From Patescibacteria group bacterium (GTDB lineage Bacteria; Patescibacteriota; Patescibacteriia; Buchananbacterales; UBA6539), in contig JAQTYZ010000002.1 in NCBI GenBank assembly GCA_028688055.1, forward strand, positions 132,256-196,255: DNA of 64,000 bases, written 5' to 3'. The notes beneath the pieces are model-generated. The model did not search any database. It was not told where the DNA came from and was given only the letters and a program-made list of their open reading frames with translations. This document shows, piece after piece, positions 15,956 to 53,244 of this stretch; position 1 is the stretch's first letter, and each line of letters opens with the position of its first letter. A program made the translations under genes and the position numbers.

Positions 15956-16177
15956 CTAGGTGGCCGTTTCGGCCAACAGGTCTTCCAGGGCTTTGAGAAA
16001 ATCGTCGAGATTGACTCCTGCTTGGGTGCAAATGTGTTCCAAAGTGTCGGATTGCGCCGACGGGCAAGTAGTGCAGTAGCCGAGATGAAACCGTTCAAAG
16101 ACATCGTGTGCCTTGGAATGAGCATCCAGGGCATCAGCAACGCTCATCTGTGAATAGAAGCGCTTTTCGGCCGACAT
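15956..16177 (-). CDS. DUF1858 domain protein (hybrid-cluster-protein-associated redox disulfide domain)
   Basis: 73 aa. MSVADALDAH..VFERFHLGYCTTCPSAQSDTLEHICTQAGVNLDDFLKALEDLL matches the DUF1858 pattern (fhlgyC..CP..etLee...hGvdldell). TTGACA-17-TAAAGT promoter and AAGGAGG SD on the minus strand. Confidence 0.7.
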   Translation of the reverse strand: MSAEKRFYSQMSVADALDAHSKAHDVFERFHLGYCTTCPSAQSDTLEHICTQAGVNLDDFLKALEDLLAETAT

Positions 16178-16433
16178 AGCTTACTTCCTCCTTAGTTTAG
16201 ACCAGCCATTATTGGTTAAAATACTTTATCGTAGTTTTAGCTTGGTGTCAACTGTAGCGTTGCAGATAAAAATATTTGTATCTGCGTATTTGTAAAATTA
16301 TTAGCATGTTGTCATATACAAAAATAAAAAAAGACCCCGCACCATTTTTCCGAATGAATTAGATCCGGGGGTTTAGGTGCGGGGGCTAAGCAAAGGTCAA
16401 TTTGTTAAATCTAGCCTAGCGGCTGGTCCACGA

Positions 16434-17408
16434 TTAGGCGAGTTTCAGGGATTCGAGAAAATGCTCGCGGGTGAAGACGGAAAGATCGCAGGTCGTCGGG
16501 TTGATCGCTTGGTTGGCCAAGGAAAATAACACGGGCAGGGAAGTCATCTCGCCGGGGAGAAGTTTAACGTTAGGCCCGATGTCTTCCATCTCGACCATGG
16601 CCGGCCCCGGGTTGTCAACTTGTGCCGACGGGCCAACGTACATCGCGGCGTTGCACCCGGGGATGGGGTAGGACAAGTTGTGATTGTAAGGCGGCGCGGC
16701 CTTGAATAGCGTCATGTCCTTATTCGGTATGATCATGGCTTGTCCACCAAAGGGGGAAGTCCAGGCGCGTTTGGCCTCTAGACCGGAAGGCAGGAGAAGG
16801 TGCAACCACTGTCCGTCAGAGATGACCTGACTGAATTGCCCGTCGCCGTCGTCACTGGTCGTGTGGCCACCACCCCATTTGGGGAAGTGGACGACCGTGA
16901 AGGAATCCCAAGCGTCATCGCCGCTATTCAGGCGACTGGTGTAGACCGCATCCGTTGACACGGGGTCGGTGCAGGTGATCGGCCAGATTCCGCCGGATAT
17001 AAGCATATCCCCGGCATTCTTAACGAAGCTAACCACATCGACCATACTGTCCGCCAAAGGCCGAATAATGAACCCTTTGACGAGTTGCATCTCGTCGGGC
17101 GGTGCCGTGAAGACGAAGCTGCCGTCCTCGAATTCGCCGACCTTAATGGGGCCAGTGTCGGGCGTGTAAGCCCCGTGATGCTCATCGGCACCTTCCAGTG
17201 CCCACCAGACCCGAAGGCCACCCCTCAACTGCCACAGCCCGCGCCTGAACTTGCCTTCCGGATCAAGGTAGAGCAAGTTCGTGTTTATGTCTGGACCAAG
17301 ATGGGCGATCCGCAGAAACGTCGTGAATATCACCAACTCGATCCCGGCCAGACTCAGGTGGACTGCTGATTGACCTTGAAACTGGATATCTCTTCTTGTG
17401 AACCTCAT
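16434..17408 (-). CDS. hypothetical protein (GC-rich island C; possibly sugar-metabolism partner of the adjacent isomerase)
   Basis: 324 aa, ~58% GC. In an apparent operon downstream of the FucI-like gene. Intrinsic terminator at 16325-16360 on the minus strand. Confidence 0.5.
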   Translation of the reverse strand: MRFTRRDIQFQGQSAVHLSLAGIELVIFTTFLRIAHLGPDINTNLLYLDPEGKFRRGLWQLRGGLRVWWALEGADEHHGAYTPDTGPIKVGEFEDGSFVFTAPPDEMQLVKGFIIRPLADSMVDVVSFVKNAGDMLISGGIWPITCTDPVSTDAVYTSRLNSGDDAWDSFTVVHFPKWGGGHTTSDDGDGQFSQVISDGQWLHLLLPSGLEAKRAWTSPFGGQAMIIPNKDMTLFKAAPPYNHNLSYPIPGCNAAMYVGPSAQVDNPGPAMVEMEDIGPNVKLLPGEMTSLPVLFSLANQAINPTTCDLSVFTREHFLESLKLA

Positions 17409-17448
17409 CTTTTTCTTTGCTCCTGTTGTTGTACTTCTTTCGGTTTCG

Positions 17449-18927
17449 TTAGTCTTCTTCGGGTCGTTCGTGGCGGTAGGTTGTCATGCCGAAATAGTTC
17501 TCGAAAGCCTCGGTGATGGCGTCGGCATGGTTGCCAAAACCGATAGCCACATGGTGTGGGAATCCGTTGCGACAAGCGATCCGTACAAGTTTGTCGAGCT
17601 TTGGCACGGCAATGATGCCAAAGCCGCCAAAGGTGGTGATTTGGTCTTCGGTGGTAACACCTTGCGCGGTGTACGCCATACATTGGCCGTCCGCGTCGTT
17701 GGTCGTCATCCGGCAGAGTGTGACATTTTGATTCGGCGCGAACGCGCCTTCAATGGTACCGTAGGTACTTTCTTTTCCGACGGTGCCAGCGATGATCGCT
17801 TGATAGCCCATCATGGGTTTGACCAGGAACGATCTGGCGATATTGCTACAGTGGAAGGCAACGAAGGTTCCCTTACGCGGGCCGTTGTTGTTCCAGTCCA
17901 CCAGTGCCGCCGGATTTCCCGATGCAAGTTGTAGAGCGCGCATACTGACGGCTCCGCAGACATCGACTTCGCAAGCCGCACAGAACAGCGAATCGCTGAG
18001 CATACTCATGATCGCGCAGGGGACCACGCCGTAGTGTTGCTGCAAAGCAGTCCAACACTGGATTGCCAGGGCATCGATTTCGTTTTCTTCGCGGAAGCGG
18101 TTGATAACGACGGCCAGTTTGGCCATCTTCAGCAATGCATCCAGAGGGATATGCGAGGTTTCAACATAAGCCTTGATGGCTTCAACCTGGGCTTTGACCG
18201 TTTCGTCGTCGTCGGCGAGTGCGTTGGCTTGGCCGATGACTTCGGACAAATCGAGCGTGATGACCTGGATGCCAAGGACTTGGGCCAACAAGGTCTCGCT
18301 ATACCGCATGGTGCGGAAAGCGTCGGGTCGCGTGCCAATGGCACCGATGCGACAGCCACGCAATCCCTGGACCACCCGGCAGGTCGCCGCGAATTGATCG
18401 ACCTCGGCTTTGAATTCGTCGCTGGCCGGGTCGAGCGTGTGCGATTGGGTCAGGCTGAAGGGAATACCGAGCTGGGTCAGGTTGTTGCAGACACTGAATT
18501 TGCCGCAGAACGAATCGCGGCGTGTTGCGATTGTCATCGCGGCGCAGTCATCGGCAAAGGCGTGCACCAAAATCGGTACATTGAGCCCGGCCATTTGTAG
18601 GGCTTCGGCGACCGCTTTTTCATCGCCGAAGTTAGGCAGTGTGACGATCACGCCGTCGATTACGTCACCGTGCTTCCGGAAAAGCTCCGCGCACTGTTTC
18701 GCATCTCGATGGCTTTCTATCGCCCCACCGAATTGAGTGTCGTTCTCGGCGAGGACGACGACGTCATAGCCAAGGCCTTTGAGGTTCTCGACCATTTGTC
18801 GTCGGCCATTGACCGCCAGTTCACTTGGGAAAAACCCCCGCGTGCCGACAATCAGTCCAAATGTGGTTCTTCGTTGCATCCTGATTTCCTCTCTTTCTAC
18901 AATCACTTCGCTGTGGTTTAACTGCAC
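17449..18927 (-). CDS. L-fucose isomerase-like family protein (FucI/AraA superfamily)
   Basis: 492 aa. N-terminal FGLIVGTRGFFP substrate-binding-domain signature. AACEVDVCGAVSM corresponds to the FucI catalytic ATENDSLNGVAM region. The true start may be the internal Met at 18879. Confidence 0.7.
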   Translation of the reverse strand: MQLNHSEVIVEREEIRMQRRTTFGLIVGTRGFFPSELAVNGRRQMVENLKGLGYDVVVLAENDTQFGGAIESHRDAKQCAELFRKHGDVIDGVIVTLPNFGDEKAVAEALQMAGLNVPILVHAFADDCAAMTIATRRDSFCGKFSVCNNLTQLGIPFSLTQSHTLDPASDEFKAEVDQFAATCRVVQGLRGCRIGAIGTRPDAFRTMRYSETLLAQVLGIQVITLDLSEVIGQANALADDDETVKAQVEAIKAYVETSHIPLDALLKMAKLAVVINRFREENEIDALAIQCWTALQQHYGVVPCAIMSMLSDSLFCAACEVDVCGAVSMRALQLASGNPAALVDWNNNGPRKGTFVAFHCSNIARSFLVKPMMGYQAIIAGTVGKESTYGTIEGAFAPNQNVTLCRMTTNDADGQCMAYTAQGVTTEDQITTFGGFGIIAVPKLDKLVRIACRNGFPHHVAIGFGNHADAITEAFENYFGMTTYRHERPEED

Positions 18928-19205
18928 AAATTGTCAAACAACATCCTCCAAAATCAACTGCAACTTACTTAAAAATGGCTTAATTGTCAAGGATAATTCT
19001 CTTTACTAGAACAGCCCTTGTTCTCAAAATTAGAGAATTAAATACCCTTGACAATTTCACATTTTCCCTTAGAATGTGCATATTCATGATATTGTCTTAT
19101 TTTTTCTTTAAAATTATTGGAAAAATATGTACAAAAATGTCAAAAAATATTATAATGAAGGGGTTTTACTGATATTTTTTAGACATCAACGATAACAGAT
19201 AATAT

Positions 19206-42350: not shown

Positions 42351-43217
42351 ATGTCTTCAAAAGTTTTAGCGGCGGCGGTCTTGGGCCTAGAGTGTGAATT
42401 AGTTACGGTTGAAGCGGACACCTCGCCGGCTTTGCCCGGAATATTTATCGTGGGCTTGCCGGATAAATCGGTCGACGAATCTAAAGAAAGAGTGCGCTCG
42501 GCAATTAAAAATTCCGGTTTAGCGATGCCGCGCACCAAGGTGACTGTTAATCTCGCTCCCGCTGATTTAAAAAAAGTTGGGCCAGCTTATGACTTGCCAA
42601 TCGCAATCAGTATTTTAGTAGCCAGCAGTCAGTTGTCGTTAAAAGATAAATGGTCGAAGCAACTTTTTATCGGTGAATTAGCGCTGGACGGCCAACTTCG
42701 TCCGGTGGCCGGCGTTTTATCAATTTGTCTTAAAGCCAAGGCGTTAGGAATAAATAAAGTAATTTTACCTTTGGCTAACGCCGCTGAAGCATCATTGGTT
42801 TCAGGGTTAGAAATAATTGCCTGTAAAAGTCTGGAGCAGCTTTCATTATATTTAAAATCGAAAATAGCCATTGAGCCATTTGAGCCACCGCCAACAATTT
42901 TTAATGCTGTTAATGAATTCGGGGGATTAGATATGGCTAATATTAAAGGTCAGCATCAGGCCAAACGAGCGTTGGAAATAGCGGCCGCCGGTGGGCATAA
43001 TATTTTATTTTATGGCCCGCCCGGCTCTGGTAAAACATTATTGGCCAAAACTGCGGTAACGATTTTGCCGTCAATGACTAAATCTGAAGCGCTTGATGTC
43101 ACTAGGATTTATAGCGTCGCTGGCTTACTGCCGCCCGGGCAACCGTTGATTAACCAGCGGCCATTTCGGGCACCGCATCATACTTCATCGGGCGTGGCGT
43201 GTATAATAGCAAGGTAG
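42351..43217 (+). pseudogene. comM: comM/yifB (Mg-chelatase-like AAA+ competence ATPase) N-terminal fragment, interrupted by an integrated element
   Basis: YifB N-terminal Lon-like domain and Walker A (FYGPPGSGKT). Reads ...RAPHHTSSGVA, then runs into element sequence and terminates. The rest of the gene resumes at 52558. Confidence 0.8.
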
Positions 43218-43342
43218 AGAGATTAGGGGTTAAGTTTGAGATTGTGAGAAATTTAACCTGAAATTTAAGGTATTCTAGTATTATGGACAGAGCTCTATTA
43301 AAGTAATAAGATTTAGGGTAGTAAAATATTTTGGAATAGTAT

Positions 43343-44404
43343 ATGGGAAAAATGTTTTTAGCTTTTGCAGACTGCTCTTCTTCTAACAAAAATGTTATCA
43401 AAAAGATTGGAAACATTGAATTTTTTAATTTAGCAAAGATTAATCAGAATGATTTTTTGAGGTTAATGAATAGTAAATTTAAGTTTCCGAACAAAAAGTT
43501 GATAAAAAACTTTCCCAATTCACCTGACTATAAATTATTCACCGATTTATACAAATGTAGTGCCTGGGGCATGATGGTACCCCACAATCATAGGGAAAGT
43601 TTTGGATCAATATATATTCCAAGAATGATAACCCATCTTTATACGGCCAAACCTTTGATATGCACTTTTTCTGTGACTGTTGCCGGACCATGGATTATGA
43701 CTAGAAAACTTGCTATAGATCAGAGAGCTCAGTTTCATTCTGAAGACAAGTCTTTGATGTCTAAAAGGTTTTTAAAGTTTTATAAAGAAATTTATCCGGT
43801 GATCCAAGGAACCAACTGGAACGCCGATGAAGTTACTCAATGGGATAATGAGCGTTGGAGGGTTCACTTGGCACTAGTTTTTTTTGATCAATTATTCGAA
43901 TACTATAACAAGAAGCCAGTAACAACTTGGCCGAAAGAATGCTCAGAAATTGTCACACTAATTGAAACTATTTTCTCAGTGCATAAAAGTGATTATGGTC
44001 AAACACTAATGATGCAAAGAGTAGAGGTGTTGTTGGGTGATTTTTATGGCAAAGCCTTTAAGGATGTAAAACAAGATCTAAAAGATCTTTTTGATTACAG
44101 AAACAAATTTATTCATGGTAAATACTTTTTGACATTAAAGAAAAAAGTAACTACTTATCCAGATAATAGTAATATGGCACAGTTGCCCTCTGTTGACATG
44201 AGGTTGCTTTTTTCTCTAGAACTTATCGTTAGGGATTTAATGGTGGCATACTTGTATTTGTTAAAATATTTTCATCATAAGTCAAACAGAGGTAATATTA
44301 TGCTATCTAGAGTTATTTTGGAAGCCGTTATGGACATTCAGTTACGAGAAAAAATTCAATTCCGAGTAAATAGAATCCTTAGGCTAACTCATAGGGAGAG
44401 GTGA
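43343..44404 (+). CDS. hypothetical protein with C-terminal HEPN-like R-N-x-x-x-H-G motif (element cargo)
   Basis: 353 aa. DLFDYRNKFIHGKYF in a helical C-terminal region. Preceded by a TATTATGGACA promoter-like box. Followed by a CCCC-gtaa-GGGG + T-run terminator (44487-44506). Confidence 0.4.
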   Translation: MGKMFLAFADCSSSNKNVIKKIGNIEFFNLAKINQNDFLRLMNSKFKFPNKKLIKNFPNSPDYKLFTDLYKCSAWGMMVPHNHRESFGSIYIPRMITHLYTAKPLICTFSVTVAGPWIMTRKLAIDQRAQFHSEDKSLMSKRFLKFYKEIYPVIQGTNWNADEVTQWDNERWRVHLALVFFDQLFEYYNKKPVTTWPKECSEIVTLIETIFSVHKSDYGQTLMMQRVEVLLGDFYGKAFKDVKQDLKDLFDYRNKFIHGKYFLTLKKKVTTYPDNSNMAQLPSVDMRLLFSLELIVRDLMVAYLYLLKYFHHKSNRGNIMLSRVILEAVMDIQLREKIQFRVNRILRLTHRER

Positions 44405-44585
44405 AGAGATCTGGTTTGACTTATTGAGGTTAATGAACTATTTTTAACCTACCAACATAGCACGATAAAGCAGAATCAACATAGCGTCCCCGTAAGGGGG
44501 TTTTTGATTTGTCTAATTTTGGTATTATGGACACAGATTTGTTGGTGTATTAAGATTTATAATAATTGAAATAATCAAATAAGTT

Positions 44586-45113
44586 ATGCATGATTCAGAA
44601 AAATTTAAAGAAGCCATGAAAAGTATGCCTGATAATAGCATTGATGATTTTACTAAAAATATTGTAAAATTTTTATTAAAATTTAATGATGAGCAGATTA
44701 ATACAGTATCATTCGTGTTTTGGTTAGTTTATGTCGCAGAACTTAAATTAGACGAATTTAGAATACACGCATGGGAAGTAGCAGAAAAGGATTCTTCTGA
44801 AGATATAATTGATAGAGCTAAGCAGATGCTTACTGATAAAATTAATTTAGATAGGTCAGTTATCAATAACCCTAGATATTTTTCTGAAAAAATAAAATTT
44901 TTTGAAGGTGTTATAGGAAAAAATGATTTTGTTGAGATTTTATATATTTTAAGAGATTTGAGAAATGATATAAGTCATTTACGTATAGATAATTTAAAAT
45001 ATAAAGAATTATCTCTCTACACAAGAGAAGCAAAGGAAAATCTTATAATTGATTTTGTTGAGTCGGCAAGGAATTGCAATGCATCTAAATCTGATTTTAG
45101 GCAGTTTATCTGA
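44586..45113 (+). CDS. small HEPN-like protein (R-N-x-x-x-H motif; element cargo)
   Basis: 175 aa. ILYILRDLRNDISHLRID, which resembles the LRxxRNxxxH HEPN catalytic helix. Own TGgTATTATGGACA extended -10 box. Confidence 0.4.
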   Translation: MHDSEKFKEAMKSMPDNSIDDFTKNIVKFLLKFNDEQINTVSFVFWLVYVAELKLDEFRIHAWEVAEKDSSEDIIDRAKQMLTDKINLDRSVINNPRYFSEKIKFFEGVIGKNDFVEILYILRDLRNDISHLRIDNLKYKELSLYTREAKENLIIDFVESARNCNASKSDFRQFI

Positions 45114-45188
45114 GTTTTTAATCCTTCTTGTTTAAACTTAAGGTGGCAGATGGTTGGGTCGTCATTATACATGAATATTTAATTTAAT

Positions 45189-46328
45189 ATGGAAAATTTT
45201 CAAAGTCTTTATGATCCAATTGATAAGTGTATAGAAGAAGGTGTTATTAATTCCAAGTTTCTCGAGATACTTGCAAAGACAAATCCTCTTAGCACTTGGC
45301 ATAATGAATTTTTAGAATTAGATAAAGTATATAAGTGGCCAAGTCTTAAACAAACACATTATCAAATCGACATAGAAGTTGATAGCCCGACCATTATCTT
45401 AAATGGGGAAATAAAAGATTATAAAAATATTATCTATACTAAAAAAACTAAGGTAATAAGAAAGGGGAGAGGCAAAGACTCGGAAGAAAGTTTAGAATCA
45501 TATTTAAACGAAAAGCTAGGAACAATATCATCGTTTTTGATGTTAAGTAAAAAACATTCAGATGATTATATTAAGTTAGGTTCAGAAAAATTAAGTCAGT
45601 TATTGAGCAGTGAGGGTTCGTGGGAGATTAAAGATAAAGATATTTCTATTAGTGGAAACTTAAATATTTTTGAGAGTGATGAATTGTTAGACCAGTTAAC
45701 TATTTCATTTTTATTAAAATCTGCGAGAGAAGGTAAAGGTAGACTACTACAAGATGCTGCAGCTTTGATTTTAATAGCTTTACTATATAAAAGATTGAAC
45801 TATCAGGTAGAAAGTATTTTTAAAGATATTAAAAATATTGACTGTAGTGAGACTCTTGATGATGCAATACATTTTGCAATCAAAATTATTAAGGACGATG
45901 AAACGGTGCCAGAAAGGTTTAGATTCAAGTCTGGCAACAGCAGTTCATTAAGATTTTTTTTAGTAGGGACAAGTTACTCAGAAGCTGGGGAAAACGTCTT
46001 TATACCAAAAATAAGAGAATATTTTCGGGATAAACGACTAAAATATGATAAGGTTTCAAAAGAGGATTATTTTAGTGAACTATCTACCGAAAAAGATGAA
46101 GAAGAAATAGAGTTTGATGTAAAAGATGAAAAAAATAACTTAAAGTTAAACGAGGGGTTACTGGCAAGTATTGATGGGGTAATCAATAATTTATCCGAGA
46201 GAGATCAAGCCATCTGGCGTATGTTTTTGGACGGACGTACCGGTGACGAAATAGGTGAAAGATTTGGCTTAGGTAAGGCAAGGATTTCTCAGATATTAGC
46301 TGAAATTAGAAAAAAAATTATGGATTAA
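45189..46328 (+). CDS. protein with C-terminal sigma-70 region-4 (LuxR/ECF-type HTH) domain
   Basis: 379 aa. C-terminal LSERDQAIWRMFLDGRTGDEIGERFGLGKARISQILAEIRKKI is a region-4 HTH signature. The N-terminal 300 aa has no recognisable family. Confidence 0.55.
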   Translation: MENFQSLYDPIDKCIEEGVINSKFLEILAKTNPLSTWHNEFLELDKVYKWPSLKQTHYQIDIEVDSPTIILNGEIKDYKNIIYTKKTKVIRKGRGKDSEESLESYLNEKLGTISSFLMLSKKHSDDYIKLGSEKLSQLLSSEGSWEIKDKDISISGNLNIFESDELLDQLTISFLLKSAREGKGRLLQDAAALILIALLYKRLNYQVESIFKDIKNIDCSETLDDAIHFAIKIIKDDETVPERFRFKSGNSSSLRFFLVGTSYSEAGENVFIPKIREYFRDKRLKYDKVSKEDYFSELSTEKDEEEIEFDVKDEKNNLKLNEGLLASIDGVINNLSERDQAIWRMFLDGRTGDEIGERFGLGKARISQILAEIRKKIMD

Positions 46329-46765: not shown

Positions 46766-46974
46766 TGGAATTTAAATTTACAACTGAAAATTATGAGTTG
46801 CTCAGATTTTTGCATAAAGAGCTAATAAAGAATTTAGATGAAACTAATGAACTAGAGTTTGTCCTGATGGAAAAGAAAAGAGATTTTTATAGACTAAGTA
46901 AAAAAATTAACGAACTAACTAACAAAATTAAATTAAATGAAAATGAAGATTCAAAGCCCAAAGCCAAAAGTTAA
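46762..46974 (+). CDS. hypothetical small coiled-coil protein (element)
   Basis: 70 aa. Its start overlaps the preceding stop (ATGA). Confidence 0.3.
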   Translation: MMEFKFTTENYELLRFLHKELIKNLDETNELEFVLMEKKRDFYRLSKKINELTNKIKLNENEDSKPKAKS

Positions 46975-48328
46975 AGAAGTATTTATCAGTTCCTTGGTAA
47001 ACCCTAAAGATGCCAGTCTAGTTGAAATGGTTTATTCAGAAGATCAAAACTCCACTCGTTTTATTCAGTACTTTAACGGAGAAATTGATACTAGGGATTA
47101 TATCGAAAAAGAGGATGGTAGAGTTAAGCTATTACCATTTCCACCCAATAATGACTTGGTTAAAAATAAGGTTATCCTATTCCCTAGCTATCCAGCCGAG
47201 TATGGCAATGATAGACAGTTGTTAAATAACATTTCTAACTTTATTCATAAATACTTAGACGTAAGTCCATTTTTTGAAAAAATATCGTCTTACTATGTTT
47301 TGTTTACATGGGTTTATGATTGTTTTAATGAACTACCTTACCTCCGAGCGCTAGGTGATTATGGAACAGGCAAATCAAGACTTTTAAAAGTTGTTGGTTC
47401 AATTTGTTATAAACCAATGTTTACTGCTGGGGCAACTACTGTTTCTCCAGTTTTTAGAATTATTGATAGCTTTAGAGGCACATTAATTTTAGATGAAGCA
47501 GATTTGAAGTTTAGTGATACTACTATGGAAATAATTAAAATATTAAACTCTGGTTATGCAAGTGGAACTCCAGTATTACGAAGTGTAACCGATGGTAAAA
47601 ATGGCTTTGATGTTAAGAGCTTTAATGTTTACTGCCCTAAGATTATAGGGACTAGGGGTAGATTTCAGGATAAAGCTCTAGAGAGCCGTTTTCTAGTTGA
47701 GGTAATGGATAAAAATAAGTTAAGAGATGACATCCCGATCAACCTGCCTGAGAGTTTTGAAAAAGGAGCGCTTGATCTAAGAAACCAATTGCTAATGTGG
47801 CGCTTTAAGAACCATGGCTCTAAGAAGATTAAGCATGAGTTGGTTGATAAAAGTATAGAGCCTCGTTTAAACCAAATCATTGTACCTCTGGCTAGTGTTA
47901 TTGAGCACTCTGAGCTTATCAAGGAGTTGCAGGACTTTATTAGAGAGTACAATAGGCAATTAACCTCAGATCGGGGAATGACATGGGAGGCTGGTATTCT
48001 AGAGGCAATTATAGAGCTTAAAAAGGAGTTGATATTAAGCCCAACTGTTAAAGAAATCACTGAAAGGCATAACGCCACCGTTGAAGAAAAAGAAAAAATA
48101 ACAAATAGGAAAACGGGTTACATCATTCGGGAGAAGCTTGGGTTCATAACGGTGAAAACTCGTGATGGTTATATTGTTGAGGGTAATGAGAAGAATAACA
48201 CAAGATTTTTTCACCTAGTTACTAAATATGGTTTAGATGAATTGTTAGAGGGTGAGAAGCGTGAACATGTGAATGATGTGAACGTTGCTACAGGGGTAGA
48301 TAAGGATGATTTACCTAAATTCAGCTAA
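46937..48328 (+). CDS. P-loop NTPase, putative element replication protein (D5/VirE/primase-helicase C-terminal-like)
   Basis: 463 aa. Walker A LGDYGTGKSRLL and Walker B TLILDEADL with downstream motifs. Confidence 0.5.
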   Translation: MKMKIQSPKPKVKEVFISSLVNPKDASLVEMVYSEDQNSTRFIQYFNGEIDTRDYIEKEDGRVKLLPFPPNNDLVKNKVILFPSYPAEYGNDRQLLNNISNFIHKYLDVSPFFEKISSYYVLFTWVYDCFNELPYLRALGDYGTGKSRLLKVVGSICYKPMFTAGATTVSPVFRIIDSFRGTLILDEADLKFSDTTMEIIKILNSGYASGTPVLRSVTDGKNGFDVKSFNVYCPKIIGTRGRFQDKALESRFLVEVMDKNKLRDDIPINLPESFEKGALDLRNQLLMWRFKNHGSKKIKHELVDKSIEPRLNQIIVPLASVIEHSELIKELQDFIREYNRQLTSDRGMTWEAGILEAIIELKKELILSPTVKEITERHNATVEEKEKITNRKTGYIIREKLGFITVKTRDGYIVEGNEKNNTRFFHLVTKYGLDELLEGEKREHVNDVNVATGVDKDDLPKFS

Positions 48329-50586: not shown

Positions 50587-50967
50587 TTGTCAATAAGTTT
50601 AAAAATAAGTGATATGGAAAAAAAGAATGAATTTGATATTACTTTAACAGAGGCAAGAAATATAATGGCAGACTTTGGTAAATGTATACAGGATCATCCT
50701 GGGGGTGGCTATCAGAATCTTTTACCGCATAGTACGGATTCAATTCTCATTGCCGCATTAAAAATTATTTTAAGTGATGAAACCGACAAAGTCTATAAAG
50801 AAATTGCATCTCTGTCGTTAGTATATCTAAAAGACTTTATCCCAGACGAGAAGGAGTATAAGAAGATGGTTTTTCTAAAAGAGTCAAAAGATATTTTAAT
50901 GGATGAATCAATATCCCTAGAAGAGAGAGCTGCTAAAATGAGCAGGATAAGGAAAAAATATTTATGA
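50587..50967 (+). CDS. hypothetical protein (element)
   Basis: 126 aa. Stop overlaps the recombinase start. Confidence 0.35.
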   Translation: MSISLKISDMEKKNEFDITLTEARNIMADFGKCIQDHPGGGYQNLLPHSTDSILIAALKIILSDETDKVYKEIASLSLVYLKDFIPDEKEYKKMVFLKESKDILMDESISLEERAAKMSRIRKKYL

Positions 50968-52595
50968 AAAAAGCGGTTTATTATGCTCGTGTAAGTACTA
51001 GCCTGCAGGAAGAGAAAGGTACAATTGAAAGCCAAAAATTTGAACTTCTTAATCAGATTAAAAAAGATGGGAGTATTTTAGTTAAAGAATATATTGATAA
51101 TGGTTGGTCTGGAGGAAGATTAGATCGTCCAGCTTTAGATGAATTAAGAAATGATATTAAAACCGATCTATTTGATGTGGTTTATTTTTTAGATGCCGAC
51201 AGAATCGCTAGAGATGTAAGCTACCAAAATATAATTATTTCAGAATTATTAAAGTATAACAAAGATATAATTATCAAAGGTAAGAGCTATATTCACAATC
51301 CAGAGAATAAATTTTCACTAACTGTCCTCGGAGCTGTTAACGAGTTGGAGAAAGCAAAAATAGTTGAGAGGATGATGAGGGGTAGGAGAGAGAAAGCTAG
51401 AAGGGGAGCAATTGTTGATTCAGGCGGACTATTTGGCTATGACCATGTCAAAAAAACAGATCAAAAAGATGGGTATTATAAAATCAATGAAAAACAAGCA
51501 GAGGTTGTTAAATTTATTTATGAGACATACGCCTATGAAGATGTTAGCATTACGGGACTCATTAAAATTTTAGAAAACAAAGGCATCCAAACGGCCAGAG
51601 GTAGTAGTGTTTGGAAAGGTAGTGTTATTAGACGGATTCTGACAAATGAAAGTTATTATGGGCATCATCATTTTAATCGAACAGAAAAAGTGGAATCAGG
51701 AATAGAAAAGGAAAGGTATGCGAAGAACGCCAAAACTCTTTCAAGACTGAGGGATAAATCTGAGTGGATTTTGGTTCCAATCCCTCCCATAATTAATCAG
51801 GAGCTTTTTGATATAGTTCAGGGTAAGTTGAAAAGGAACTATAAACTCCTAAGAAATACGAACAACAAGTATCTTCTAGGGGGCGTTATAAAGTGTGGCG
51901 TTTGTGACCATACTTACTCGGGGGTTAGTTGGAAGGGAGATCAATACTATAAATGTAATTATAGAGACAAGACATACAATCATAGTAAGTTGGTTGATAT
52001 TGAAAAATGTGATAATCAGGCAATTAAGGGTGAGATGATAGACGGCTTAGTATTGGAAGAACTAAAAGAAAAAATACTAAAACCGTCTATTATTAAGAAG
52101 CATATAGACATTTTGCAAAGCTCTAAAAGCGAAGGCGCTAAGTCTTTAAACAAAGCATTTGATAAAGCAGACGCAAAACTTAAAAGTTTAGAAGTTAAAA
52201 AACAGAGGTTGTTAGATTTGTATGCTGATAATTTATTAAGCAAAGAGGACTATATAAGCAAGATTGAAGAAATTGATTTAAGCTGCAAAGAGCTTGAAGA
52301 AGAAAAAGATGATTCGACCAAAAGACTTTCCTTGTTAGATAAGAGAAAAGATATTAGAGTTAATATTAATCATTTTTGTAGACTAGCTAGGAGAAGATTT
52401 GATAAATTAGACAGAAAAGAACAAATTCGGTTCATAAAAAATATTATTGATGAAGTTATCATTTTCAAAAATGATTCTGCAAAAAAGCTAATTATTAGAG
52501 GGATTCTACCCGTATTAGCTGAGAACAATAGTCTGTCACCTCAGTATTATACAGGCTATGGGGGTGGCGTTGGTTGGCGGCGGCACTTGGCCTAA
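50964..52595 (+). CDS. large serine recombinase (integrase)
   Basis: 543 aa. Resolvase catalytic domain (AVYYARVSTSLQEE). Recombinase domain. Zn-ribbon (CGVCDH...CNYRDK). Coiled coil. The ORF crosses the right junction into comM sequence (..GYGGGVGWRRHLA). Confidence 0.9.
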   Translation: MKKAVYYARVSTSLQEEKGTIESQKFELLNQIKKDGSILVKEYIDNGWSGGRLDRPALDELRNDIKTDLFDVVYFLDADRIARDVSYQNIIISELLKYNKDIIIKGKSYIHNPENKFSLTVLGAVNELEKAKIVERMMRGRREKARRGAIVDSGGLFGYDHVKKTDQKDGYYKINEKQAEVVKFIYETYAYEDVSITGLIKILENKGIQTARGSSVWKGSVIRRILTNESYYGHHHFNRTEKVESGIEKERYAKNAKTLSRLRDKSEWILVPIPPIINQELFDIVQGKLKRNYKLLRNTNNKYLLGGVIKCGVCDHTYSGVSWKGDQYYKCNYRDKTYNHSKLVDIEKCDNQAIKGEMIDGLVLEELKEKILKPSIIKKHIDILQSSKSEGAKSLNKAFDKADAKLKSLEVKKQRLLDLYADNLLSKEDYISKIEEIDLSCKELEEEKDDSTKRLSLLDKRKDIRVNINHFCRLARRRFDKLDRKEQIRFIKNIIDEVIIFKNDSAKKLIIRGILPVLAENNSLSPQYYTGYGGGVGWRRHLA

Positions 52596-53244
52596 ACCGG
52601 GAGAAATTTCTTTGGCCCACCGCGGGATCTTGTTTCTCGATGAATTTCCAGAATTTCCTAGGTCCGTGCTGGAAAATCTGCGTCAACCGCTCGAGGATGG
52701 AGTAATTAATGTCTCTCGGGCCACTGGTACGTTACAATTTCCGGCCAAGTTTGTTTTAATTGGTGCGATGAATCCTTGCCCCTGTGGTTATTTAACTGAT
52801 ACGGAAAGACAATGCGTCTGTTTACCTGGGCAGATCATCAAGTACCAAAAGAAAATATCCGGCCCGCTGCTGGACCGTATCGATTTGCACGTCGAAGTGC
52901 CCAAGGTCAATTTTGATAAATTGACCGAAGAAACGTTAGCGGAAGATTCAGTTAGTATTCGCCAGCGGGTTGAGGCTGCTCGGCAGTTACAGATTGAACG
53001 GTTTAAGTGTATTGGCGTTGTCGCTAATGCTGAACTGTCTTCAAAACAGACCAGTGAATTTTGCCAAATTGATGACAAATCGCTGCAGCTTTTAAAGCGA
53101 GCGGTCAGCCACTTTGGCTTGTCGGCTCGCTCCTATTTTCGAATTTTTAAATTAGCTAGAACCATCGCTGACTTGGGGGCCAAGGAAAGTATTGAGTTTG
53201 ATCACGTGGCCGAGGCGTTACAATATCGTCCTAAGGCTGATTAG
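52558..53244 (+). pseudogene. comM: comM/yifB C-terminal fragment (downstream of insertion)
   Basis: Resumes GVALVGGGTWPKPGEISLAHRGILFLDEFPEF (Walker B / sensor regions) through the C-terminal Mg-chelatase domain. Confidence 0.8.

Follow-up and report, generated by a model that had tools for sequence, protein, structure and literature searches.

Two neighbouring predicted HEPN ribonuclease genes as attL-proximal cargo of a yifB/comM-inserted element in a Patescibacteria group bacterium

Described HEPN systems and the locus under study

Solo HEPN ribonucleases (RNases) have recently been established as self-contained abortive-infection genes on mobile elements, for example HepS, HEC-08, ApeA and DARNA. 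HepS, a "HEPN solo" abortive-infection protein of the Gifsy-1 prophage (PDB 9oij and 9oik), forms a latent tetramer that is triggered by a phage tail tip and cleaves tRNA in the anticodon (PMC13043305). HEC-08 is a single-gene HEPN defence that requires the histidine of its motif, and like HepS it has been validated as acting without a partner (PMC13043305; bioRxiv 10.1101/2024.01.29.577857). DUF3644 has been assigned to the HEPN families and occurs within restriction-modification operons (PMC3710099). Here, we describe two adjacent genes on a 9.4-kilobase (kb) integrative element that lies in a 64-kb stretch (64,000 nucleotides, nt; hereafter the window) of contig JAQTYZ010000002.1 from the metagenome-assembled genome of a Patescibacteria group bacterium. 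Little is known of immunity and of mobile elements in Patescibacteria, in which CRISPR is seldom found. The genes encode proteins of 353 and 175 amino acids (aa), which are entered at NCBI as PHW95_02555 and PHW95_02560, each as "hypothetical protein". This analysis established the gene anatomy, the predicted folds, the invariance and placement of the catalytic dyad and the lack of pairing; it also showed that the neighbourhoods are of a defence type and that the cargo slot varies. We hold with moderate confidence that these are two independent single-gene HEPN RNase modules, carried as variable attL-proximal cargo, and not one two-gene system.

Both open reading frames (ORFs) were found as claimed in a first-pass annotation of the window, on the forward strand and with the motifs DYRNKFIHG (R253/H258) in the 353-aa protein and LRDLRNDISHL (R126/H131) in the 175-aa protein. 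The same annotation had placed them immediately inside attL, and the start of the 353-aa gene was located 143 nt from that junction, in an element recognised by a split yifB gene, a shared core and a recombinase. What had been observed there was confirmed, and what had been made of it, a HEPN-HEPN toxin and partner as defence or addiction cargo, was supported in part.

The locus shows the HepS-type arrangement, in which a lone HEPN gene resides on an integrated mobile element and has no conserved partner. The 175-aa protein shares with HepS a small size, a single HEPN domain and an Rx4H dyad, and both genes are accessory cargo of an integrated mobile element without a partner or inhibitor gene; the carrier differs in being a non-phage element in a Patescibacteria host. 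When the profile of the 175 family was compared with PDB, HepS (9oij) aligned on the RN..H helix with an expect value (E) of 0.11, which is not significant, and the 175-aa protein is therefore not a member of the HepS family. HEC-08, like the HEPN compared with it, matches SO_3166 (5yep) structurally, and it combines an N-terminal HEPN with C-terminal zinc fingers, whereas the 353 family has an N-terminal alpha/beta domain and a C-terminal HEPN. The HepT-MntA pairs (HEPN-MNT; SO_3166/SO_3165, PDB 5yep; 7ae2) also contain small HEPN RNase toxins, as here. No NTP_transf_2 or MNT domain was found in the proteins of the element or in the immediate neighbours of the examined homologues, and thus the defining partner of HepT-MntA is absent from them.

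The best sequence kinship of the 175 family is with the HEPN of Csm6/Csx1, the ancillary RNases of type III CRISPR systems. These differ in carrying a CARF sensor, whereas the 175-aa protein has no CARF and its matches span the HEPN part only; because it consists of the nuclease domain alone, control by cyclic oligoadenylate cannot apply. Scans with domain libraries detected no cas genes in the element. The 353-aa protein resembles ApeA and DARNA (PD-T7-3) in having a HEPN RNase and a second, non-catalytic domain in one polypeptide. However, ApeA has a beta-rich N-terminal domain of ~300 aa, DARNA has an N-terminal HEPN with a helical C-terminal domain that binds single-stranded DNA, and neither extra domain resembles the 120-aa alpha/beta domain found here; there were no significant sequence matches. 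The DUF3644/EC042_2821-type proteins resemble the 353 family in placing a HEPN RNase domain within restriction-modification or defence operons and differ from it in their partners, and the matches of the 353 family to DUF3644 are below the Pfam cut-off.

Motif conservation and predicted folds of the two proteins

The RNxxxH motif taken alone is weak evidence for HEPN. For the chance level, the 57 main ORFs of the window were examined and found to contain 15 Rx4H and three RNx3H motifs, and two of the three RNx3H motifs are those of these neighbouring genes. Homologues were therefore considered, and the arginine and histidine were found to be invariant across them, which indicates that the motif is more than chance and agrees with the conservation that the first-pass annotation had required of a HEPN pair. 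The 353 family comprises 35 full-length relatives of ~350 aa without a Pfam domain, in which R253, N254, H258 and G259 are invariant (35/35 for R, N and H). By an indexed search, the 175-aa protein appeared to be an orphan; an exhaustive phmmer search gave 68 cluster representatives, of which 57 were aligned with a mean column identity of 24%. R126 and H131 are the sole invariant columns of this alignment (57/57), and the residue following R126 is N or D in all 57 sequences. For back-translated scanning of loci a tighter subset of the family was used, the broad alignment being too diverse. Acidic residues located in upstream helices are also conserved in both families (E52 in 55/57 of the 175 family; E199 and E208 in 35/35 of the 353 family).

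The 353-aa protein contains a further conserved block, QFHSEDK, at residues 130-136 (window 43730-43750), between the N-terminal and the HEPN domains. Across the family it is almost unchanged (H132 in 32/35, E134 in 33/35 and D135 in 34/35) and may represent a second functional site.

The fold was predicted with AlphaFold2 from the family alignments. The model of the 175-aa protein is all-helical with a predicted local distance difference test (pLDDT) score of 95.8 and a predicted template modelling (pTM) score of 0.88, and that of the 353-aa protein (pLDDT 83.8, pTM 0.84) consists of an N-terminal alpha/beta domain (residues ~1-120) and a C-terminal helical domain. In both of these confident models, the dyad lies where a long helix ends C-terminally and passes into the next loop (H131 follows helix 114-130, and H258 follows helix 220-257), which is the same helix-end/loop position at which the dyad is placed in the HEPN superfamily (PMC3710099). 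The predicted models contain the four-helix up-down bundle of the superfamily, superposable on solved HEPN domains, and the Rx4H motif with its helix-end placement was found in both families. Thus, both proteins are predicted to be HEPN domains with an intact catalytic signature, in line with what had been expected of a fold-prediction check.

Comparison with curated models gave consistent support that stays below threshold at the sequence level. Members of the 175 family matched CARF-HEPN, Csx1 and Cas13 HEPN models with E down to 7.7e-8 (the model CARF2--CARF_HEPN matched nine members), and the 175-aa protein of the window itself matched positions 286-375 of 412 of a Csx1/Csm6 model with E=1.4e-3. 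HEPN_Apea (PF18739) was the Pfam model most often touched by this family, by 6/57 members with a best E of 4.6e-4; the window protein is not among these members, and the Pfam gathering threshold was not reached. In the 353 family, members matched DUF3644 and RiboL-PSP over residues ~190-313 with E between 5.7e-4 and 5.5e-3. Seven members matched DUF3644 (PF12358) over the HEPN region, the best at ~19 bits vs a cut-off of 27.6, and the 353-aa protein of the window had no DUF3644 match, the family as a whole staying under the Pfam gathering threshold. For RiboL-PSP (PF18735), the window protein scored 11.8 bits and the best member 17.1, vs a gathering threshold of 28.4. The profile of the 353 family found no match in PDB. 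Its N-terminal domain gave nothing at E<=0.001 when compared with PDB by Foldseek, and it matched no model of Pfam, NCBIfam, PADLOC or PHROG. The locus holds two predicted HEPN families, neither of which is covered by a curated model.

Pairing, genomic context and the explanations weighed

The relationship between the two proteins was examined at the level of family profiles. Alignment of the 353 and 175 profiles by hhalign (E=0.011, probability 3.8%) covered the motif helix only, indicating two unrelated families, and a common origin of both proteins was rejected on these values. The co-occurrence of the families was then monitored in 16 homologue loci of the 353 family (~10 distinct contexts) and nine of the 175 family, for which 21 homologue loci were searched by tblastn with every protein of the element, and all neighbours were scanned with both profiles by filter-free hmmsearch. 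None of the 16 loci of the 353 family contained a 175-family gene, and none of the nine loci of the 175 family contained a 353-family gene. Furthermore, filter-free hmmsearch detected neither family in the ORFs of 12 related elements, which had been found in metagenome contigs through a conserved 463-aa P-loop protein. A conserved pairing of the two genes was rejected accordingly. The nearest homologue of the 353-aa protein (62% identity; L001 1936-3684) follows a tRNA-Trp gene and abuts a serine recombinase fragment in convergent orientation, and no 175-like gene was found near it in L001; this homologue again stands at the edge of an apparent integrated element. In L011 and L024, 353-family genes occur alone among housekeeping genes, the L024 copy directly after rpsI.

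Several neighbours of the homologues carry motifs resembling that of HEPN. In L015 (6505-7362), a 285-aa protein with YYRNHLVHG is encoded directly 3' of the 175-family gene and aligned with the 353 profile by hhalign with E=0.04. In L002 (4575-8864), an AlwI-type restriction-modification system adjoins a tight same-strand cluster of four genes (534, 190, 338 and 360 aa), the last of which is the 353-family member; two products of this cluster, of 338 and 534 aa, have the Rx5H-like motifs FYRNRFIVH and LRSTSVAH and no Pfam match, and the cluster may be an uncharacterised multi-gene defence operon. The possibility of one HEPN lying beside another was rejected as unsupported for these proteins and for neighbours of 203 aa (L013) and 230 aa (L019), which have no HEPN signal in Pfam; by hhalign, the motif-bearing neighbours gave motif-level scores only (E=0.04 and 0.35).

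The first-pass annotation had assigned a separate promoter to each gene and a terminator between them, and this arrangement was found, with a promoter-like cassette at both genes and a hairpin between them (Table 1). The cassettes are consensus matches only, i.e., predicted promoter-like sequences. An identical TATTATGGACA box is present before each gene, as had been noticed earlier; its exact positions are 43279-43289 and 44523-44533, and the coordinates given earlier (43275-43285 and 44520-44530) were off by 4 and 3 nt, respectively. The box belongs to a 44-nt repeat, 77% identical between its copies, in which both hexamers and their flanks are conserved and the spacer is not. The divergence of the spacer with the hexamers kept suggests a conserved promoter pattern and not a recent duplication. 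Within the 64 kb, the pattern TGGACA-N17-TAAGAT is confined to these two sites, vs 0.01 occurrences expected by chance, and the box was not found in the homologue loci. The terminator and the separate promoters together imply two transcripts for the two genes.

The homologues of both families recur beside restriction-modification and defence genes, as anticipated for a defence-island context. For the 353 family, the adjoining genes encode an AlwI-type restriction enzyme and methylases (L002), type I HsdR and YgjP (L003), an Eco57I-type methylase with a PstI-type restriction enzyme and a further methylase (L005-L008), an MmeI-type enzyme with an AAA_15/21 ATPase, AbiEii and an SLFN-like protein (L009), and a PDDEXK nuclease (L025). 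For the 175 family, seven of the nine loci came from named lineages of Patescibacteria, or the Candidate Phyla Radiation (CPR), and the genes nearby encode Mrr, an AAA_21 ATPase and a serine recombinase (L014), Fic, an EcoRI methylase and GmrSD (L015), AAA_15/21 and HNH (L016), Bro-N (L017), and a Bsp6I restriction enzyme with DUF2806 (L020). Both families are rare and patchy, and often found in conflict loci.

The position of the genes as accessory cargo near attL was supported by a sister element of ~7.2 kb, inserted at the same yifB/comM site in another Patescibacteria genome (L026 4806-13557, and L033). It has the recombinase and the core genes in common with the element described here, with identities of 68% for yifB-N, 75% for the P-loop protein, 68% for the recombinase and 73% for yifB-C. 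In place of the two HEPN genes and a sigma-like gene, its slot has one gene only, for a Cys-rich secreted protease of 675 aa that is DegP/HtrA-like. The presence of another gene in the slot of the sister indicates that the attL-proximal slot is a variable accessory region.

The reading of the genes as two independent modules follows from the absence of co-occurrence, the separate promoters with the terminator, and the lone 353-family genes. Their most likely role, judged from folds, neighbourhoods and analogues, would be that of stand-alone anti-phage genes, for which we infer RNase activity, oligomeric state, latency with its trigger, and defence phenotype as follows. In the integrated state, each gene would have a transcript of its own, started at one of two near-identical sigma-70-like promoters. 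Each protein would self-associate as a homodimer or a higher oligomer, joining two Rx4H dyads into a metal-independent RNase site, and by analogy with HepS, HEC-08 and DARNA the enzyme would be latent until an invader-derived cue is received. The released enzyme would cut tRNA or mRNA and halt translation, leading to abortive infection or growth arrest, and the clonal host population, and hence the element, would be protected against phages or competing mobile elements. The sensing or regulatory part of the 353-aa protein is likely to be its N-terminal alpha/beta domain together with the QFHSEDK block, and the 175-aa protein would be a minimal "solo"-type HEPN, as HepS is.

A number of points weigh against two independent defence modules. 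RNase activity, toxicity and defence are all deduced by us from predicted folds, motifs and context, and members of the families occur in housekeeping neighbourhoods (L011, L021 and L024). The shared promoter architecture and the adjacency of the genes could reflect functional coupling within this element. As a rule, a HEPN toxin requires an inhibitor. No such gene was identified here, and autoinhibition is assumed, with HepS as the analogue. In addition, no relatives of either family were found in IMG/VR contigs by a pattern-limited search, nor was either family found in annotated phage and plasmid collections, and this absence of viral, phage or plasmid carriage leaves the genes without a known link to a specific invader.

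A HEPN-HEPN two-component module, as proposed by the first-pass annotation, would consist of an RNase toxin with a partner, antitoxin or heterodimeric half-site, active only together. The two genes are neighbours on one strand in one cargo slot, the occurrence of the promoter pattern solely before them suggests co-regulation, HEPN active sites form across dimer interfaces, and the RNxxxH-bearing neighbours in L015 (285 aa) and L002 (338 aa) are hints, at the motif level, of a similar arrangement. However, these neighbours lack a HEPN signal, the families share nothing beyond the motif and were never found together in the 16 and nine loci or the 12 elements, and the two genes would give two transcripts. 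The dyad is intact in both proteins, so that neither looks like a degenerate inhibitor. Since paired homologues had been named beforehand as what a pair should show, the pair hypothesis fails on that point, and we regard it as quite unlikely. A service role, in which the HEPN proteins would act for the element or the host as MtlR-like regulators or RNA-processing factors and not as conflict genes, agrees with the sigma-70 region-4 protein encoded directly downstream and with the homologues among housekeeping genes. It is very improbable given that R and H are invariant here and that the families are patchy, rare and enriched beside restriction-modification genes; the related elements do without both genes, which are therefore not core functions of the element.

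The genes could also stabilise the element, one or both HEPN proteins being a toxin whose antitoxin, a small protein or an RNA, has gone unrecognised, so that the element is retained in its host. Residence on an excisable element fits such addiction, and the HEPN of AbiF has RNA antitoxins. Against this, the element has no MNT or nucleotidyltransferase gene, no small ORF is conserved beside the homologues, the partners differ at every homologue locus, and sister elements persist at the same site without these genes. Neither a tandem repeat (Tandem Repeats Finder, 43218-43342 and 44405-44585) nor an Rfam match at E<=1 was found in the upstream and intergenic regions. An RNA antitoxin of the type III toxin-antitoxin or AbiF-like kind was rejected on the absence of these signals beside the genes, a novel RNA being a possible exception, and addiction as a whole is rather unlikely. 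An unlikely, more elaborate reading takes the 353 family as an undescribed "sensor plus HEPN" effector of restriction-modification operons, with the N-terminal domain and QFHSEDK (H132/E134/D135) as a trigger-sensing or second catalytic site. It would act together with a co-expressed, unrelated solo HEPN as a dual-RNase exclusion module on a mobile element of an episymbiotic Patescibacteria bacterium; the two genes would share a duplicated promoter specific to the element, which the adjacent sigma-70 region-4 protein possibly recognises.

Two further HEPN families are added here, of which the 353 family has a new domain architecture recurrent in restriction-modification operons. These are new families, from a little-studied phylum, inside the well-known theme of HEPN RNases in defence and not a new kind of system; since systems of this type were established before, the conceptual advance is modest. 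In practical terms, the locus yields two candidates for defence genes in which the predicted catalytic residues are specified. The exchange of HEPN genes and a DegP-like protease at one yifB/comM site is a natural "cargo swap" and offers a clean comparative system for the turnover of accessory genes in Patescibacteria.

The carrier element and other features of the window

The Mg-chelatase-like gene yifB/comM is cleanly interrupted by the serine-recombinase integrative element, and a low-GC island (~0.29-0.36 vs ~0.42 outside) sits between its two parts (Table 1). Joining the two copies of the GTGGCGT core restores the reading frame of yifB. In the left arm, TGTATAATA is inverted relative to TATTATACA at 52545-52553, and both flank the junction cores on the element side. 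The island between the yifB halves, the shared cores and the recombinase at the right end define an element of ~9.4 kb. An HTH_17 excisionase-like protein is also encoded at the right end, and no recognisable phage structural genes were found among the element proteins with the domain libraries and PHROG.

Table 1. Positions in the window of the two genes, their predicted control signals and the boundaries of the element
Feature	Position	Strand	Remarks
yifB/comM 5' part (host, N-terminal)	42351-43217	+	TIGR00368 positions 2-279 of 499, E=2e-91
attL junction core GTGGCGT	43194-43200	.	Heptamer repeated at attR
Conserved left arm (recombination arm) ahead of variable cargo	43200-43250	.	~50 nt kept in sister L026, then divergence
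Promoter-like cassette 1: TATTATGGACA box, TGGACA-17-TAAGAT	43279-43312	+	ATG 31 nt downstream
353-aa protein: N-terminal alpha/beta domain (~1-120) and C-terminal predicted HEPN (~140-346), R253-N254-x3-H258-G259	43343-44404	+	
Intrinsic-terminator-like hairpin and T-run between the genes	44486-44510	+	Only such site in 43150-45300
Promoter-like cassette 2: same TATTATGGACA box, TGGACA-17-TAAGAT	44523-44556	+	ATG 30 nt downstream
175-aa minimal all-helical predicted HEPN protein, R126-N127-x3-H131	44586-45113	+	
Large serine recombinase, 543 aa, right end	50964-52595	+	Resolvase, Recombinase and Zn_ribbon_recom domains
yifB/comM 3' part (host, C-terminal)	52558-53244	+	TIGR00368 positions 278-499, E=6.8e-84
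attR junction core GTGGCGT	52564-52570	.	Same heptamer as attL

The ORF of the serine recombinase crosses attR into the host yifB, and its last ~9 codons are host-derived when the element is integrated; an excised circle would give the recombinase another C-terminus. The 463-aa P-loop protein (GDYGTGKS; window 46937-48328) is a conserved core gene of the element family, with 30-75% identity across the 12 related loci. It had no match in Pfam, NCBIfam, PADLOC or PHROG and is possibly a replication or mobilisation ATPase. Directly 3' of the 175-aa gene, a 379-aa protein (window 45189-46328) with a C-terminal sigma-70 region-4 or extracytoplasmic function (ECF)-like domain is encoded, with no terminator detected between the two genes. 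This sigma-like gene is missing from the sister element, and its product could regulate both promoter cassettes.

Two features outside the element were also observed. A GC-rich block (0.52-0.55 vs a background of ~0.42) spans 16000-19000 of the window with long ORFs on both strands, and it is not rRNA because it gave no Rfam match. A tRNA-Ile with the anticodon TAT, an uncommon choice for this tRNA in bacteria, was predicted at 1806-1882, beside a tRNA-Val.

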